Shown here in pieces: positions 1 to 20,023 of a stretch of DNA of 64,000 nucleotides. The DNA is taken from IMG/VR virus record IMGVR_UViG_3300035208_003581, positions 1-64,000 of that record. One strand, written 5' to 3'. Position 1 is the first letter of the stretch; the number at the start of each line of letters is the position of its first letter. This stretch comes from a virus (taxonomy: Duplodnaviria; Caudoviricetes). Under the pieces are notes generated by a model. The model saw nothing but the letters and a program-made list of their open reading frames with translations, made no database searches and had not been told where the DNA came from. A program made the position numbers and the translations under genes.

Positions 1-122
1 TAGTAAAGACTGTAGGTTTAAAAACAGCAATAGATATTATGCCTATATTAGGGGAAGGCATTGCTTTACGGGTAGATCCTACTAATAGCGCTGTGGATCG
101 CGATGTACTTATTAAACCCTAA
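1..122 (+). CDS. 3' end of an upstream gene (partial, hypothetical)
   Basis: The frame starting at 3 is open (VKTVGLKTAIDIMPILGEGIALRVDPTNSAVDRDVLIKP) up to TAA at 120-122. Confidence 0.55.
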   Translation, partial: VKTVGLKTAIDIMPILGEGIALRVDPTNSAVDRDVLIKP

Positions 123-248
123 ATGCGAGGTTGTTTTTAACTTCGAGCGCGAATTATAAAGCACTCACGATAAAGCCAGTCACTTATCGTGCATTGGGGA
201 TATAATGTTTAATTTATTGATTTATACTTATGAAAGTTAAGGTGATTT

Positions 249-908
249 ATGTTTCAAGATATATTTTATATGATATGTTGGCCGTTAATTTGGGTATGTG
301 TTTTATTAAGTATTTCTATACATGATTATTTTTCTCATAGACATTTATTATTGAACTTCAATAAATTAAATTCAGATTTCAGAGATACTTTAGATACCAC
401 TCTACAAGAATTAAAATCACTTACAGTTAAGTTACAAAAAAATGATGTTTATGAACCAATGTGTGAGTATAGTTTTAATACTCTATTATATATAATACCA
501 GGTATATCATTTATATTAGATACAGATGGTAATTTTGATCTCATTACAAATGTTGATATTTTAGGATGGAAATCAGAAGATTTAATAGGTAAACATTTTT
601 CAAAAATCATACATACTGATTATGTAAATGAAATTAAAAGAGAAAATGTTCTTTTAAAATATAAAAATACGTCTCCTACAGAACAACCTAAAATTTTTGA
701 TGAGAGAAGAACTTCTCCACGAATTACTCAAAATTTACACATACAATTATTGCATAAAAATACAAAAGAGATTGAAGATGCAGATATGTATATTTATGGT
801 TTAGTTACATCATCTGGTCGATGGTTTGGGGATATAAATTCAGATGATAAAGAGTTTATAGGATCAATAGGAATTATTGAAATAAAACAAAATATAAATC
901 AAGATTAA
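249..908 (+). CDS. Membrane-anchored PAS-domain protein (paralog 1)
   Basis: N-terminal hydrophobic helix (ICWPLIWVCVLLSISI), coiled linker, PAS signature IPGISFILDTDGNF..ILGWKSEDLIGKHFSKIIHTDY, C-terminal FIGSIGIIE strand. No output domain. Confidence 0.8.
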   Translation: MFQDIFYMICWPLIWVCVLLSISIHDYFSHRHLLLNFNKLNSDFRDTLDTTLQELKSLTVKLQKNDVYEPMCEYSFNTLLYIIPGISFILDTDGNFDLITNVDILGWKSEDLIGKHFSKIIHTDYVNEIKRENVLLKYKNTSPTEQPKIFDERRTSPRITQNLHIQLLHKNTKEIEDADMYIYGLVTSSGRWFGDINSDDKEFIGSIGIIEIKQNINQD

Positions 909-965
909 ATTTTATATTTATATTTATTATTTAGGAGTGAGGTTAATAGTAAAATATCAAGAAAG

Positions 966-1616
966 ATGGACGGTATGAATATGTATTTTAGTATAATAAT
1001 AGTATTTTTTGGTTTAATTATGTTATTGATCATATTACAAGATCGTAAATTTAAAAGTAACTTACCGTATATAATTAGTGATAATGATAATCAATTAGAA
1101 AATTTAAAAGAATTAACAGAAAGATTAAATGCTGCAGAAAAAAAGATAAATATTTTTGAAAAGCAATTTGAAGAGAAATATTTTACTTTGATTAATTTAA
1201 TACCATTAGGTGTATATATTCTGAATAAAGATGGATTGTTTACATTTGTAAGAAATTTTGAATTTTTGGGATGGGAATCAAGTGAGCTATTAGGTAAACA
1301 TTTTTCTATTATCATACATCCAGATTATATAAATGATGTTAGTAGGGATATTGTATTACCTAAATATAAAGGTAGATTAACAGGATCAAAAAATGCACCT
1401 GGCTTATTCGATGAGAGAAGAACACCATTTTCTGATGACCAAAATCGGATTACTCAGAATCTCTTTATTTGTATGATACATAAAGATTGGTGTCAATCAT
1501 CTGATTGTTCAATGGTTAAGAAAGGATTAGTGTATTCAGCAGGTTATTATGATTCGATTGTAAGAGATCCAAATAAAGGATTTTCTGGTACTGTAGGTGT
1601 TATTAAATTGACTTGA
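966..1616 (+). CDS. Membrane-anchored PAS-domain protein (paralog 2)
   Basis: TM helix (FSIIIVFFGLIMLLIIL), coiled coil, PAS motif IPLGVYILNKDGLF..FLGWESSELLGKHFSIIIHPDY. Shares FDERRT and RITQNL with the previous ORF. Confidence 0.82.
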   Translation: MDGMNMYFSIIIVFFGLIMLLIILQDRKFKSNLPYIISDNDNQLENLKELTERLNAAEKKINIFEKQFEEKYFTLINLIPLGVYILNKDGLFTFVRNFEFLGWESSELLGKHFSIIIHPDYINDVSRDIVLPKYKGRLTGSKNAPGLFDERRTPFSDDQNRITQNLFICMIHKDWCQSSDCSMVKKGLVYSAGYYDSIVRDPNKGFSGTVGVIKLT

Positions 1617-1632
1617 AGTAGGTGGTATAATA

Positions 1633-1911
1633 ATGAGTGATGGTCATTATCATTTTGTAAATAGTAAATTGGTTCCTCCTCAACAACAAAGTAGTAACAA
1701 TAATAATGAGGATTGGTCACGATGGTCAATGTATGTTTTACGTGAATTGGACAGACAAAATAATAATTTAGAAAGTTTACGAAAAGTAGTTTCTGAGCAA
1801 AATGTAGCTATTGCAAAGTTAAATGTTAAAGCGGGTATATGGGGTATTATGGGTGGTGCTATTAGTGGTTTAGTAGCATTAATTATGTGGTTTATGAAAA
1901 GTCAAGGTTGA
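1633..1911 (+). CDS. Small coiled-coil protein with C-terminal TM helix (XhlA/holin-like)
   Basis: Coiled coil (VLRELDRQNNNLESLRKVV) followed by a Gly-rich TM segment (AGIWGIMGGAISGLVALIMWF); RBS AGGTGG upstream. Confidence 0.55.
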   Translation: MSDGHYHFVNSKLVPPQQQSSNNNNEDWSRWSMYVLRELDRQNNNLESLRKVVSEQNVAIAKLNVKAGIWGIMGGAISGLVALIMWFMKSQG

Positions 1912-1915
1912 TAAA

Positions 1916-2293
1916 ATGGATATTTCTGTTCAAGTCATAAAGCAGTTTGCAGAATATGGTGGGTATATAGGTATATTAACTGCAACATTTATTTTAATGA
2001 TGACTGGTGCAATAATTTATCTATGGAAATACATTCAGAAAATACAAGGTCAAATAGAATTAAATCAAAAAGAATATCAATTATCATTAAAGTCTTTTCA
2101 AGATGACTTTTTAAATATGCAGCAGAAAGCTCAGATTACTATAACAGATCTTCAGAATAAACGAGTTGATGAATCTAAAGAAGTACGTGTACTTTTAATG
2201 GATTTTTCTGACGAAAATAATAAAGTTATTAGAGGTCTTACTGAAGCTATCAATGCTTGGAAAGAAGCTTTTATTATTACTAATAAGGGTTAG
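1916..2293 (+). CDS. Holin-like protein (BhlA/UviB-type topology)
   Basis: N-terminal TM (YGGYIGILTATFILMMTGAIIYLW) followed by a long soluble coiled coil. Confidence 0.5.
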   Translation: MDISVQVIKQFAEYGGYIGILTATFILMMTGAIIYLWKYIQKIQGQIELNQKEYQLSLKSFQDDFLNMQQKAQITITDLQNKRVDESKEVRVLLMDFSDENNKVIRGLTEAINAWKEAFIITNKG

Positions 2294-2296
2294 TGA

Positions 2297-2548
2297 ATGC
2301 TAAATTTTTTTAGAAAAATTTTTAATAGATCTGATTTAAATAGTACTACATCAGATACTGATAATGCTTCATTTATTAAACAAAACAAAAGTAATTTTGA
2401 TGAATTTATATCTAAAGTACGTATAAATGAAGATCATATTGAAATACGGAATATGTTTGAAGATAGAAATAGTGATTTAGCTGCATTAAAAATACAATTG
2501 GAAGAACTTAAAAAACAAGCTATAGATATTTTAGGAGAACAAAAATGA
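2297..2548 (+). CDS. Small coiled-coil hypothetical protein
   Basis: Tightly packed ORF with amphipathic N-terminus MLNFFRKIF; its stop overlaps the next start (ATGA). Confidence 0.55.
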   Translation: MLNFFRKIFNRSDLNSTTSDTDNASFIKQNKSNFDEFISKVRINEDHIEIRNMFEDRNSDLAALKIQLEELKKQAIDILGEQK

Positions 2549-3006
2549 ATTCTGATGAAAAACTTGATGCTATTTTGAAACTTATTCAAAATTTAATTAC
2601 ACCCATGACAAAAACTTTAGATGAAATGAAAAAATCTTCTGATGAGATCAGTAAGTCTACATCAAGTCGATATATAGTACTTATATCAATGACTATTATT
2701 GCTTTTTTTGTATTTGGATCTCAAATATTTGTAATAAACAAAATGAATAATGTTATCTCTAGAATAGATGAAGTTTCAATTCAATCAAATATAAATTCTG
2801 TTCAATTTGAAGACCTTGCAAAAGTTACTCGTGATTATACTTCTTCCCCTGAAGTAGAGAAGAAAATAAATGATATGTTAATGGCTAATAAATACCCATC
2901 AAAATATCAGATTTCAAGAATGATGAAATCGTTTAGAAAACCAAAATCACAATTGGTACAACGAATATTAAATGCTGAGTTATTGGATTCAATAACAGAT
3001 AAATAA
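2545..3006 (+). CDS. Single-pass membrane protein with coiled coils
   Basis: Central TM (YIVLISMTIIAFFVFGSQIFVI); RBS AGGAG. Confidence 0.6.
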   Translation: MNSDEKLDAILKLIQNLITPMTKTLDEMKKSSDEISKSTSSRYIVLISMTIIAFFVFGSQIFVINKMNNVISRIDEVSIQSNINSVQFEDLAKVTRDYTSSPEVEKKINDMLMANKYPSKYQISRMMKSFRKPKSQLVQRILNAELLDSITDK

Positions 3007-3020
3007 TATTTCAGCATTAA

Positions 3021-3046
3021 TCTTTTTATGTTTAAGTGAATTAGGT
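3021..3046 (+). promoter_or_regulatory. Putative late-promoter motif TCTTTTTATG-N10-TTAGG
   Basis: Similar motifs recur in intergenic gaps at about 5919, 9792, 12342 and 23832, and on the minus strand at about 18598-18623. Confidence 0.4.
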
Positions 3047-3082
3047 AATACTTATTGTTTTTATAAAAAAAAGGAGAATGAA

Positions 3083-4243
3083 ATGTTACGTGTTATCCAT
3101 AGTCAATCACAAGATGGTTTAATAATTTTAAGTGATATTGAGGATGGTGTTAGATTCAGTTCTCGAATTATATTAGATAATGCAGCTCGTTTAGCTGCAA
3201 AACAACCAGTATATGTTCCATATTATAACCCAGATGATCCTACTCAACCTGGATTTGTAGATTTAGATGAAACTGATAAAGTTTTATTGTCAGCAGACCA
3301 TGGTTGTATAGCTGGATTAGTTGATGCAGGATTAGCTACAGTTGAGATTTTCGCTGCTGCAGATATTTTAATTCCAACAATAGTTTCGGTAGAATTAAAT
3401 GATGATGTCTTTGTTGGTGGGTTAGTTGTTATAGGTACAAAATTATTATCCACTTTACCATTTGTATCATCATTAATAATTACTGGTGACGGTGCTGTTA
3501 CCTACACAAGAGCAGAAGTTATTGCTGGTGGTGGTACATGGACTGATACACAAATTGCATTACCTGCTACATTAATTACAGGTGTTGTAGAAACTACATC
3601 TGAAATTACTGTTACTGCTGATGGTCTTACAGTTACACCTGTTGTTGAAGTTGCATTAGGTGCTACAACAGTTCCTGTAGTTACTACAGCAGTATTAAGT
3701 GATGGAGATGACCCAAATATACTTACAGTAACTGGTACTGGATTCTTATCAATATTACCAGATACTTCGTCAATAATAATTACTGGTAGTGGGGCTGTAA
3801 CAATATCAAAAGCAGATGTTTTAACTGGTAGTGGTACATGGACAGATACTGAGGTGGTTTTACCAGCAGCATTAATAACTGATGTAGCAGTAGGAACATC
3901 ATCAGTAGCTATTGAAGCTGATTCTGAAACATCAACACCAGCTACCGTTATTACATTAGGAACTCCAGCTACTCCAGAAATTACTACAGCAGTATTAGAT
4001 ACAGATTTAACTATTACAGGTTCAGGTTTCTTATCTATACTTCCAGAGTTATCTTCAGCAGCAATTACTGGTGATGGTGCTGTTACATTAACTCAATCAC
4101 AAGTTGAAACTGGTTTAGGTACTTGGACAGATACTTCAATTGTCATTCCAGCAGCATTGATTGCTGGTGTGTCAGCTACAACATCATCTGTAGCTGTTAC
4201 AGCAGATGCTGATACAAGTTCCGTAACTGTTATAACGGCATAG
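3083..4243 (+). CDS. Virion decoration-type protein with three Ig/IPT-like repeats
   Basis: Three ~95-aa repeats (L.V.G..[FL]LS.LP..SS..ITG.GAVT.......G.GTWTDT....PA.LI); T/V/A/G-rich; strong RBS AAGGAG. Confidence 0.65.
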   Translation: MLRVIHSQSQDGLIILSDIEDGVRFSSRIILDNAARLAAKQPVYVPYYNPDDPTQPGFVDLDETDKVLLSADHGCIAGLVDAGLATVEIFAAADILIPTIVSVELNDDVFVGGLVVIGTKLLSTLPFVSSLIITGDGAVTYTRAEVIAGGGTWTDTQIALPATLITGVVETTSEITVTADGLTVTPVVEVALGATTVPVVTTAVLSDGDDPNILTVTGTGFLSILPDTSSIIITGSGAVTISKADVLTGSGTWTDTEVVLPAALITDVAVGTSSVAIEADSETSTPATVITLGTPATPEITTAVLDTDLTITGSGFLSILPELSSAAITGDGAVTLTQSQVETGLGTWTDTSIVIPAALIAGVSATTSSVAVTADADTSSVTVITA

Positions 4244-9865: not shown

Positions 9866-10855
9866 ATGTTTGGAGTAGGACTTGACATTGGAACAATGAA
9901 TATCATTAGTTCTCGAAAAAATGAAGCAGATGATTTAGTGGTAAAACGTATTCGAGATGCATTTTTGGATTTAGACCTAGATGCTAAAAAAATGTTGAAA
10001 CTTACAAAAGTAAGTTATATTGAATATAGTGATAAAATAATAATTGTTGGTGACAATGCTTTAAATACTGCTAATATTTTAAAGAAGGATGCACGTAGAC
10101 CTTTAAGTAAAGGTATAATATCCCCATCTGAAATTGATGCAGTTGAAGTTCTTTCAGTCATGATCAAACAAGTTTTAGGTAAACCACAGAAAAAAGATGA
10201 AGTATGTTACTATTCAGTACCTGCAGCTCCTGTAGATGATCCTACTCGTGATGTTATTTACCATGCTAAAGTTTTTAGTCGTATTGTAGAAGATTTAGGT
10301 TATAAAGCTATAGAATCAAATGAAGCTCTTGCTATTATATTTTCAAATTGTGCTGAAGATGGATTTTCAGGTTTGGCATTTTCATATGGTTCTGGTATGG
10401 TAAATATAGCATTATCGTATCATACTTTAATGAGTATGTCATGTTCAATATCTAAAGGCGGTGATTGGATTGATACTCAAGCTGGGAAAGCTCTTAATTT
10501 AACAGCATCCAAAATGTGTTCAATTAAAGAAAAAGGTATTAATTTATTAGATCCAAAAGATCGCACTGAGGAAGCAATCAGTATTTATTATAAATCATTG
10601 ATTGAAGAATCTATTCATAATATGGTTGAGCAGGTAAATAATCTTGGAGATTCTGAATTCCCTGAAGCAATTCCTATTATTCTATCAGGAGGTACATCAC
10701 AAGCTCAAGGATTTTTGGAGCTATATAAATCTATTTTTAAAAATTATAAGGATAAGTTAAAGTTAGATATAAGTGAAATTCGAATGGCAAATAACCCATT
10801 AACAAGTGTTTCTGAAGGTTTGTTGTTACAAGCACTTCAGGACAGTGAAGATTGA
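9866..10855 (+). CDS. Actin-fold ATPase, volactin-like
   Basis: Phosphate-1 GLDIGTMN, connect-1 NEALA, phosphate-2 SYGSGMVN, GGDWID, adenosine LSGGTS, connect-2 PLTSVSEG; RBS AAGGAG. Confidence 0.88.
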   Translation: MFGVGLDIGTMNIISSRKNEADDLVVKRIRDAFLDLDLDAKKMLKLTKVSYIEYSDKIIIVGDNALNTANILKKDARRPLSKGIISPSEIDAVEVLSVMIKQVLGKPQKKDEVCYYSVPAAPVDDPTRDVIYHAKVFSRIVEDLGYKAIESNEALAIIFSNCAEDGFSGLAFSYGSGMVNIALSYHTLMSMSCSISKGGDWIDTQAGKALNLTASKMCSIKEKGINLLDPKDRTEEAISIYYKSLIEESIHNMVEQVNNLGDSEFPEAIPIILSGGTSQAQGFLELYKSIFKNYKDKLKLDISEIRMANNPLTSVSEGLLLQALQDSED

Positions 10856-18686: not shown

Positions 18687-18703
18687 TCTTTATGGAGGTA
18701 TAC

Positions 18704-20023
18704 ATGAGAATCACATTAAATAACGGTGTTAATTTTGAATTGGATTTAGAGGAAAAAGATTTACCATTTTTGTTTAAGTTTTTCAATGGTATGCTTACAG
18801 AACAACAAGAATACCAAGAAATCCAAGAACCACAAGAAATCAAATCTCAAGAAGTTAAAGAAGTTAAAGAAGTCCAAGAAGTTAAAGAAGTTCAAGAAGT
18901 TCAAGAATCTCAAGAAGTCCAAGAACTTCAAGAGCTTCAAGAATCTCAAGAAGTCCAAGAACTTCAAGAGCTTCAAGAATCTCAAGAAGTCCAAGAACTT
19001 CAAGAGCTTCAAGAATCTCAAGAAGTTCAAGAAGTTCAAGAAGTTCAAGAACTTCAAGAGCTTCAAGAATCTAAAGAAGTTAATAAAAAAATTAATAAAC
19101 ATCAGACAGTATGTCTTGTAGATAATTGTGATTTACCCTCTAAATGTAAAGGTTTTTGTCAGAAGCATTATGCAGCCTTTTCTTATTATACTAAGAAAAA
19201 AACTCCAGAAAAATTTTATGTGTTAAATCCAGTACATAATGATATTGAAACCCATATTGTTTGTATTGTAGATGGATGTTCTAATACAGTGCATAAAAAG
19301 GAAATGTGCGAAAAACATTATAAAATGTATAAGAAAAGTATGGATACCGTAGAAAATTTACCTAAAAAGGTGATAGAGATTGAAAAAGAGTATCGTTTAA
19401 AGAAAACATTAGAGTTATCAAATGTTGATACTGATAAATTAGCATTTGATCTAGATATCATGTTTATCAGACATGGTGAGCATTGGTCATGGTCTAATGG
19501 GTTATCTAGTGGTATGGTGCAAATAGATCTCACAGCTTCTCCTCCAATTTTGATATTTTTATCAGATAGAAATATGAATTGGACTGGTAAGTTATATGAA
19601 CAGAATTTAATTGTTAAAATATGTGAGGAGCATATTATTAATAGTATATATATTGGAAACAGTAAGCATACTCTTGAGAAATTCAAAGGGTATTATTTCC
19701 TCCCAGATGAGTATGATTCAAGATTAAAGATGATTGCACAACAAGATATTGTTACAGATGTGATGAATTTTAAATCAGGACATATTTTTCAAGTGTTTAA
19801 ATTAGAGTTTGAAGATGGTTTAATTTCAGAAGCTACTGTATTTGATCATGCAATTCCAAACACACAGGAAGTGTCTTCTCAAAAGGATATGATTGAATAT
19901 TATAATGGCGAACAAGCATTGAATTTCATACTCAAAGATCCTAAAGTGAATGATAAATTTATATTTGTATATAAAGGTGACCCATTTGAGTCAGAACACC
20001 CATTTATAAAATTTAAAATTTAA
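18704..20023 (+). CDS. Protein with Q/E tripeptide repeats and two C-x4-C-x9-C-x2-H zinc fingers
   Basis: Start ATG 18704 after GGAGG; fingers CLVDNCDLPSKCKGFCQKHY and CIVDGCSNTVHKKEMCEKHY. Confidence 0.65.
   Translation: MRITLNNGVNFELDLEEKDLPFLFKFFNGMLTEQQEYQEIQEPQEIKSQEVKEVKEVQEVKEVQEVQESQEVQELQELQESQEVQELQELQESQEVQELQELQESQEVQEVQEVQELQELQESKEVNKKINKHQTVCLVDNCDLPSKCKGFCQKHYAAFSYYTKKKTPEKFYVLNPVHNDIETHIVCIVDGCSNTVHKKEMCEKHYKMYKKSMDTVENLPKKVIEIEKEYRLKKTLELSNVDTDKLAFDLDIMFIRHGEHWSWSNGLSSGMVQIDLTASPPILIFLSDRNMNWTGKLYEQNLIVKICEEHIINSIYIGNSKHTLEKFKGYYFLPDEYDSRLKMIAQQDIVTDVMNFKSGHIFQVFKLEFEDGLISEATVFDHAIPNTQEVSSQKDMIEYYNGEQALNFILKDPKVNDKFIFVYKGDPFESEHPFIKFKI
18806..19081 (+). repeat. 9-nt-based coding tandem repeat, including 3 perfect 36-nt units
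   Basis: CAAGAAGTCCAAGAACTTCAAGAGCTTCAAGAATCT x3 at 18911-19018 within a CAAGARNNN tract. Confidence 0.9.

Follow-up and report, generated by a model that had tools for sequence, protein, structure and literature searches.

Membrane-tethered, output-less PAS proteins and their recurrent membrane-protein neighbors in a clade of huge phages

Among the sensor modules of biology, PAS domains are the commonest, and nearly all that have been described are wired to an output within the same protein. Here, we describe two tandem genes, termed PAS1 and PAS2, that lie near the start of a 64,000-nucleotide stretch of DNA from an uncultured Caudoviricetes phage (positions 1 to 64,000 of IMG/VR virus record IMGVR_UViG_3300035208_003581; hereafter, the window), and whose products belong to a phage family of membrane-tethered PAS proteins without outputs. 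This family, with its recurrent partner, is real, conserved and previously undescribed, and it is confined to one clade of huge phages. Its members keep the sensor and a conserved Arg-rich loop, drop the output, and add a tether and a small membrane partner, which in the window is the product of the next gene, s92. Our favored reading, which we judge to be about evenly poised between right and wrong, is that the PAS genes and s92 form a portable cassette, comprising a membrane PAS sensor and its partner, that serves a late membrane event.

The window constitutes the first 64 kb of a 123-kb virus contig (G000) estimated to be 27% complete, and it is this combination of length and rating that identifies the source virus, whose GC content is ~30%, as a huge phage. 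PAS1 and PAS2 open a run of six + strand open reading frames (ORFs) that precedes a larger gene, g386. An original prediction, made from the sequence of the window, listed these six ORFs, all of which are present, and proposed that they form one environment-gated lysis or membrane-signaling system of a kind not previously described. Full-text literature searches indeed returned no paper on a phage PAS-holin module, nor any jumbo-phage paper mentioning PAS domains.

Anatomy and cellular relatives of the PAS proteins

PAS1 and PAS2 are paralogs sharing 43% identity (E 8e-35), and each bears one strong N-terminal hydrophobic helix at residues 6-24 (Kyte-Doolittle 2.2-2.9). Their features in the window are as follows, with model confidence given as the predicted local distance difference test (pLDDT):

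249..908, + strand: PAS1, 219 amino acids (aa); transmembrane helix (residues 6-24), long helix and PAS domain, without output
966..1616, + strand: PAS2, 216 aa; transmembrane helix, long helix and PAS domain, without output
981..1037, + strand: PAS2 membrane anchor, residues 6-24; 5-residue N-terminal stub predicted outside, remainder cytoplasmic
1083..1199, + strand: long helix of PAS2, residues 40-78, ahead of the PAS core; pLDDT 87-95
1200..1613, + strand: PAS2 PAS core, residues 79-216, from the AlphaFold2 model and Foldseek
1368..1451, + strand: subtype-defining insertion of PAS2, residues 135-162, between the F helix and G strand; confidently modeled loop

The AlphaFold2 (AF2) model of PAS2 built from a 31-sequence alignment (pLDDT 88.8, predicted template-modeling score 0.71) runs from a membrane helix through a disordered linker to a long helix (residues 40-78) and a PAS core (residues 79-216); a two-row alignment gave a pLDDT of 37 and an unusable model. 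The core displays the five-stranded antiparallel sheet and flanking helices of the PAS fold, and the top Foldseek matches in the PDB are all PAS or LOV domains, among them 3lyx, NifL (2gj3), FixL and Aer (probability 1.00 for many of the matches, template-modeling score by target 0.6-0.78). The ESM Atlas likewise points to PAS both by features and by structure, and an exhaustive HMMER search with a two-paralog profile recovered 3009 proteins, 70 of them at E<=1e-30. Scores against the curated PAS models stay slightly short of the thresholds (for TIGR00229, PAS2 reaches 22.7 bits and PAS1 18.2 against 22.9; for Pfam PAS, 15.1 and 12.8 bits against 22.6), and these models align over the N-terminal half of the domain only, because of the insertion; homologs found by the profile do exceed the Pfam PAS cut-offs. 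Taken together, the HMMER, ESM Atlas and Foldseek searches support the PAS identity well. Pfam and NCBIfam searches detected no kinase, GGDEF, EAL, SpoIIE, HTH or other domain in either protein, and both proteins stop at the last PAS strand, so that the description of PAS1 and PAS2 as tandem, output-less PAS paralogs with a transmembrane helix is confirmed.

The orientation of the proteins in the membrane can be predicted from the charges that flank the anchor. The N-terminal flank carries a net charge of -2 to 0 in all seven phage orthologs and the C-terminal flank a charge of +1 to +3 in six of them, and by the positive-inside rule the PAS domain is predicted to face the cytoplasm in these six of seven. 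The segment left outside the membrane measures only 3-8 residues across the orthologs, and therefore these proteins would not sense the periplasm. The long helix at residues 40-78 is probably a dimerizing coiled coil.

Both proteins belong to a PAS subtype of ~150 aa that is marked by the ~28-residue loop between the F helix and G strand. Seven residues (P145, D149, E150, R151, R152, R161 and T163) are shared without exception by the 31 phage and cellular sequences that were aligned, PAS1 and PAS2 among them. PAS1 is the more diverged paralog and has a shorter insertion loop, although it retains every invariant subtype residue; the pair constitutes a lineage-specific tandem duplication. Beyond phages, the best HMMER matches are HisKA/HATPase histidine kinases, GGDEF proteins and SpoIIE phosphatases; Pfam, too, recognizes a PAS domain in the segment that matches, and profile E-values descend to 1e-62. 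These bacterial proteins carry a homologous PAS domain with the same P/DERR/R/T insertion and a coiled coil directly before it, but they are soluble and equipped with outputs, whereas the phage proteins are anchored and end where the PAS domain ends. All of the 80 metagenome loci with this subtype encode long, multidomain proteins, the output domains that follow PAS in the cellular relatives amount to 200-900 residues, and all 13 relatives whose N-termini were inspected lack a transmembrane helix, are soluble and place the coiled coil directly before PAS. Searches of the PDB by sequence with the two-paralog profile gave no match, and those with a 31-row profile matched only the kinase domains of alignment members and, weakly, the ARNT/BMAL PAS domains; no close relative has been solved. 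With more than 3000 bacterial members and no solved structure, the subtype with the P...DERR...R.T loop may merit study in its own right, and the small phage versions would be convenient proteins with which to find its ligand.

Phage-type PAS proteins number seven in our set (PAS1, PAS2, P0019, P0021, P0023, P0028 and P0038). In a tree of 147 domains, all seven lie on one side of a branch (Shimodaira-Hasegawa-like approximate likelihood ratio test, SH-aLRT, 75), which corresponds to a single label change against a mean of 6.9 for shuffled labels. The tree thus fits, without proving it, a probable single capture of the domain from bacterial signaling proteins of the soluble kind. In the course of this history, the phage form kept the helix and the PAS domain, gained an N-terminal anchor and shed all outputs.

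This kinship with host-type sensors also invites an alternative in which the phage PAS proteins act as decoys, pairing with host proteins of the same subtype to form dead heterodimers or to relocate them to the membrane, and thereby shutting down a host response. PAS domains are dimerization modules, as exemplified by VqmA (PMC8284805), and the phage domains resemble their cellular counterparts (31-49% identity) no less than they do one another (34-39%). The cellular relatives share the order of coiled coil then PAS, albeit in soluble proteins with outputs, such that the phage form amounts to a truncated sensor with an added anchor. On the other hand, sequestration leaves unexplained the membrane partner, s92 or a CmpB-like protein, that is encoded beside PAS in every lineage with both flanks visible, as well as the conservation of the loop on the ligand side, for which a mere decoy has no use; moreover, no host target can be named. 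On balance, we consider the decoy explanation unlikely.

Gene order around the PAS genes

The four small genes that follow PAS2 were described in the original prediction as tightly packed, with three of them encoding a transmembrane helix, and this proves correct. The gaps between the six ORFs are, in order, 57, 16, 4, 3 and -4 nt, with a further 76 nt to g386, and a Shine-Dalgarno-like motif stands before every one of the six. The remaining features of the region, in which each small gene is named after the length of its product in aa, are the following:

3..122, + strand: 39-codon 3' end of an upstream gene, its 5' end open at the contig start
166..191, no strand: inverted repeat (hairpin) with a 9-bp stem, inside the 126-nt spacer ahead of PAS1
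1633..1911, + strand: s92; W..WS.YVL.EL.R motif, coiled coil and C-terminal transmembrane helix
1916..2293, + strand: s125; N-terminal transmembrane helix and coiled coil; opens a separately conserved trio
2297..2548, + strand: s83; soluble, small protein with a coiled coil; second gene of the trio
2545..3006, + strand: s153; single internal transmembrane helix; last gene of the trio
3083..4243, + strand: g386; acidic and repeat-rich; opens the collinear late gene block and serves as the anchor for synteny comparisons

By hydropathy, the transmembrane helices fall at residues 69-87 of s92 (C-terminal), 18-36 of s125 (N-terminal) and ~44-62 of s153 (internal), and s83 has none. The layout of coiled coil followed by C-terminal transmembrane helix is common to nine members of the s92 family, and four of eight s92 relatives match phrog_1103, a family annotated as of unknown function. 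Homologs of s125 are found in three relatives introduced below, G001 (58% identity), L033 (52%) and L031 (35%), and homologs of s153 in G001 (38%) and L033 (39%). Genes of similar size occupy the s83 position in all three (94, 82 and 93 aa, respectively), though their sequence similarity is not significant. A common origin of s92, s125 and s153 by duplication was rejected, given that hhalign assigned probabilities below 4%; the three families are mutually unrelated. Searches with the anti-phage defense models of PADLOC gave no match at E<=0.01 for the six proteins or the CmpB-like partner. A complex prediction for PAS2 with s92 scored 0.00, a value obtained without controls that counts neither for nor against binding.

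The backbone of our synteny analysis is the comparison of G000 with G001, a complete 358-kb relative reached via its PAS protein. Positions 1,916-99,400 of G000 are collinear with 226,442-356,891 of G001, with protein identities mostly in the range of 35-73%. Additionally, the six ORFs and g386, seven genes in all, recur in the same order in L032, a strain that is 99% identical and comes from a different sample, and the arrangement is therefore not an assembly artifact; L032 and the window show no differences in the PAS genes and s92, and only two positions differ across the ~2.7 kb before g386. Cultured phages offered no counterparts. A DNA search with 8 kb of the window against isolated phages gave nothing significant, as did a tblastn search with s92, and tblastn with PAS2 against 50,697 phage records returned zero matches; the PAS and s92 families thus appear to be absent from cultured phages. 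A scan of IMG/VR with a single PAS protein found no match, a scan with the PAS alignment recovered one locus, identical to L003, and prophage copies of s92 were not found in a scan of bacterial genomes.

The gene content directly upstream of g386 differs among the lineages, as listed here in gene order:

Window: PAS, PAS, s92, s125, s83, s153
L114: PAS, s92
L007: CmpB-like, PAS
L004-6: CmpB-like, PAS
P0023 contig (proteins only, without DNA): CmpB-like, PAS, genes of 140, 83 and 143 aa
G001: genes of 175, 126 (transmembrane) and 170 aa, s125, s83-like, s153
L033: genes of 179 and 164 aa, s125, an 82-aa gene, s153

PAS and s92 adjoin one another, with gaps of 1-16 nt, in the window, L114 and G001. 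In G001, the sole PAS gene lies 1 nt from a homolog of s92 (43% identity) at 58.2-59.0 kb, and only PAS1, PAS2 and s92 of the window cluster map to this site. The neighbors of the G001 pair are small, unrelated genes; the late block is 170 kb away and the CmpB-like gene of that genome 28 kb away. A homolog of the gene upstream of the G001 PAS is found in G000 at 96 kb, and PAS and s92 therefore moved as a pair. The s125-s83-s153 trio, for its part, precedes g386 without PAS in G001 and L033, and in the distant phage L031 an s125 homolog is followed by genes sized like s83 and s153, again with no PAS gene beside them. Conversely, L004-6 and L007 carry a PAS gene with none of the four small genes beside it. 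In these loci and in the P0023 contig, the neighbor of PAS is instead the CmpB-like gene, which encodes a multi-pass membrane protein and whose representative at L007:149-643 passes the ABC_trans_CmpB model (PF06541) with 37.1 bits against a cut-off of 25.9.

These patterns indicate that the cluster resolves into two separable units, [PAS(xN)-s92] and [s125-s83-s153], at least as judged from gene order and homology. Both units, together with the CmpB-like gene, populate a variable island of membrane-protein genes before g386. The proposal of a single cluster thus stands for PAS and s92, which recur side by side, but not for the trio, which recurs without PAS, as PAS does without the small genes; the trio has no PAS gene at its side in G001 and L033, and PAS has none of the small genes at its side in L007 and L004-6, a finding that goes part of the way toward refuting the proposal. 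At the same time, a membrane-protein gene stands directly beside PAS in all six lineages with usable flanks, this gene being s92 in three and CmpB-like in the other three.

Given the fluidity of this island, one might view its genes as dispensable membrane morons, for instance for superinfection exclusion or modification of the host envelope, that have gathered at a recombination-prone junction without any functional link. Their presence and absence do vary strongly among close relatives, and the sequence of four independent assemblies ends 30-250 nt before PAS or s92, as would be expected at a polymorphic junction. Yet the PAS-s92 adjacency survives relocation in G001, and CmpB and PAS remain neighbors even between lineages in which the PAS proteins share no more than ~35-50% identity, which leaves a chance assembly of unlinked genes quite improbable in our view.

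The location of the island raises another alternative, by analogy with T4, whose head assembly initiates in association with the membrane. Here, the small proteins and the PAS pair would be inner-membrane factors that nucleate or organize a very large virion, with PAS serving solely as a protein-binding module. A PAS gene directly precedes g386 and the collinear late genes in five of six lineages, a relative of s92 lies between the portal and head protease genes of a smaller phage, and the s125 homolog of G001 has a weak, sub-threshold match to Phage_scaffold (E 1e-4). Against such a role, 170 kb separate the PAS-s92 pair of G001 from the late block, and the small genes around the pair lie on both strands, the conserved loop of signaling type is retained, and no significant match to assembly proteins was found. 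We regard a morphogenetic function as rather remote.

Several further observations concern the junction itself and its immediate surroundings. The four assemblies that stop near the junction do so 27-248 nt upstream of a PAS gene (window, L032 and L114) or 106 nt upstream of s92 (L010), which suggests a population-level structural polymorphism or a repeat. The PAS cluster is at the extreme start of the G000 contig, and its upstream context is cut off; for the ORF at 3..122, tblastn gave nothing significant in G001 or L003-L007, and no similarity was found to the C-terminus of the CmpB-like gene that precedes PAS elsewhere. Clear Shine-Dalgarno motifs (AAGGTG, AGGTGG and AGGAG) mark all seven gene starts across positions 240-3082 of the window, from which we presume that the host is Shine-Dalgarno-led and so probably not a member of the Bacteroidota. 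The g386 protein is acidic with Thr/Ser-rich tandem repeats and is hypervariable between strains: comparison with L032:2928-3803 yields 38 differences in 876 nt, 29 of them non-synonymous and nine synonymous, and the pattern looks like that of a virion protein that is exposed and evolves fast, or of a recombination tract. In G001, the region upstream of the trio (L024:4898-5802; G001 224.9-225.8 kb) encodes the 175-aa protein and a Trp-rich, 126-aa membrane protein. The gene for the 175-aa protein, three genes upstream of the trio and also present in L033, matches phrog_1128 ('enoyl-CoA hydratase-like', E 3e-10). Its reading by eye as a permuted NlpC/P60 (papain-like) endolysin, based on an early His and a late Cys, found no support in Pfam, PHROGs or the PDB.

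The lysis question

The central idea of the original prediction was that the six genes jointly make up an environment-gated lysis module, with holin-like s92, s125 and s153 firing at a time set by the PAS pair. Several features are consistent with this idea, including the tight, co-oriented packing of the genes and the presence of three single-pass membrane proteins among their products. Some phages, such as P2 and lambda, keep lysis genes in the late block, and the island sits within such a block. Additionally, s92 matches XhlA in size (~70-90 aa) and in its layout of coiled coil followed by C-terminal transmembrane helix; XhlA, a membrane protein encoded by the Bacillus subtilis prophage PBSX, is predicted, and reported, to act with the holin XhlB (PMC5589764). 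In the ESM Atlas, s92 retrieves unnamed viral clusters first, and an XhlA-named cluster nearby is a lead only (score 0.90, with 16% of its members carrying PF10779).

Profile searches did not extend this resemblance beyond layout. The XhlA model (PF10779) had no match at E<=10 on the small genes in G000 or on s92 in G001, and the BhlA model (PF10960) had none on any small gene at the same threshold. Of the eight s92 relatives, a single one matched each of XhlA (E 0.38), a 'hemolysin' PHROG (E 0.022) and a holin PHROG (E 0.061), and none of these matches is significant. The XhlA/BhlA-like topology ascribed to the small proteins therefore survives as the XhlA layout of s92, without a model match, and the expected holin similarity fell away; unlike XhlA, s92 has neither a significant sequence match nor a holin or endolysin neighbor in the loci examined (window, G001, L114 and L010), and its likeness to XhlA appears to be one of layout alone. 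The wider genomes add no lysis context to either unit: models for Amidase_2, Amidase_3 and Phage_lysozyme had no match in G000 or G001, and the sole SLT domains in G001, at 81.6 and 149.6 kb, are more than 22 kb from both the PAS-s92 pair (58 kb) and the trio (226 kb). Holins are a highly varied group, and in huge phages the genes for lysis can be dispersed. Nevertheless, with six genes that are not inherited as a unit and no endolysin family near either part, the link to lysis is unsupported and represents a minority possibility, and a joint module of all six is improbable.

Proposed signaling by contact and its parallels

We return to our favored reading, that of a portable PAS-s92 cassette. 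From the anatomy, fold, conservation, orientation and synteny of these proteins, we infer that they sense a cue, contact a partner and thereby control a process. The PAS proteins would be held at the inner membrane by the N-terminal anchor and the dimerizing helix, with the PAS domain in the cytoplasm. There, the dimer may read a cytoplasmic cue, such as a small ligand or the redox or energy state, via the conserved pocket and loop. Because the proteins have no output domain, the signal would be passed by direct contact, presumably through the PAS helix, to the membrane partner, s92 or, in other lineages, the CmpB-like protein, and this contact between sensor and partner would tune a late membrane event. 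Such a device would probably have arisen through a single capture of the domain from soluble kinases, GGDEF or SpoIIE proteins, upon which the anchor was gained and the downstream part lost.

A more specific version would make PAS-s92 a phage timing device, in which the membrane-tethered PAS dimer senses energy, redox state or a metabolite and directly gates a tail-anchored membrane-integrity protein, thus forming a lysis clock without homology to holin-antiholin pairs, and in which a PAS1/PAS2 heterodimer has a shifted set-point. We think it doubtful that the system is specialized to this degree.

Several points weigh against the cassette. The six lineages with usable flanks are a small sample, and the pairing is not obligate, with PAS occurring without s92 in L004-7 and relatives of s92 occurring without an adjacent PAS gene in L010 and in a 48-kb phage contig (the one in which it lies between portal and head protease). 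A CmpB-like gene was not found in the G000 contig, whose upstream end is missing, and a CmpB-like partner upstream of PAS1 is thus neither confirmed nor excluded, the gene in question being lost at the contig end. Furthermore, no solved structure carries the Arg-rich loop of the subtype and no ligand or cofactor can be named, and support for the single-capture branch (SH-aLRT 75) is moderate.

Known systems provide partial parallels. Aer, whose PAS domain is among the fold matches of PAS2, is likewise a membrane-bound protein with a cytoplasmic PAS domain and reads the energy state of the cell, but it carries HAMP and signaling domains, whereas PAS1 and PAS2 have no output. Output-less PAS proteins do exist: short stand-alone PAS/LOV proteins are also free of effectors, such that their signal must go through protein contacts. 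The short LOV proteins, however, are soluble flavin photoreceptors, in contrast to the membrane-anchored phage PAS proteins, in which the LOV cysteine position is not conserved according to a by-eye reading of the motif. A 67-member viral cluster of short (187-aa) PAS proteins is among the nearest by features in the ESM Atlas. In the T4 RI/RIII-T system, a sensor acts on a membrane protein by direct contact; RI is not a PAS protein and senses in the periplasm, whereas the phage PAS domain is predicted to be cytoplasmic and no holin has been identified beside it. Finally, VqmA-Phi of vibriophage VP882 is a host-derived phage PAS sensor that reads a small molecule to steer the phage program (PMC8284805), although it differs in being a soluble transcription factor with a C-terminal HTH, while PAS1 and PAS2 are membrane-tethered and without a DNA-binding domain. 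If the proposed sensing is true, the family would show how a huge phage reads the internal state of its host late in infection, and would represent a minimal system for PAS signaling purely by contact.

Three other genes deserve mention. Within the late block, positions 9866-10855 of the window encode a 329-aa, actin-like protein that matches Pfam Volactin (PF25216) from end to end (E 4e-69) and is 67% identical to its G001 counterpart. In the same block, positions 18692-20023 encode a 443-aa protein with an HNH endonuclease match (phrog_5351, E 4e-12); because its G001 counterpart is only 24% identical, this gene may be a mobile insertion of the homing type. A related phage carries in its late region, at L004:2629-3870, a TnpB/Cas12f-like gene (OrfB_IS605, Cas12f1-like_TNB) ~6 kb upstream of the CmpB-PAS pair.

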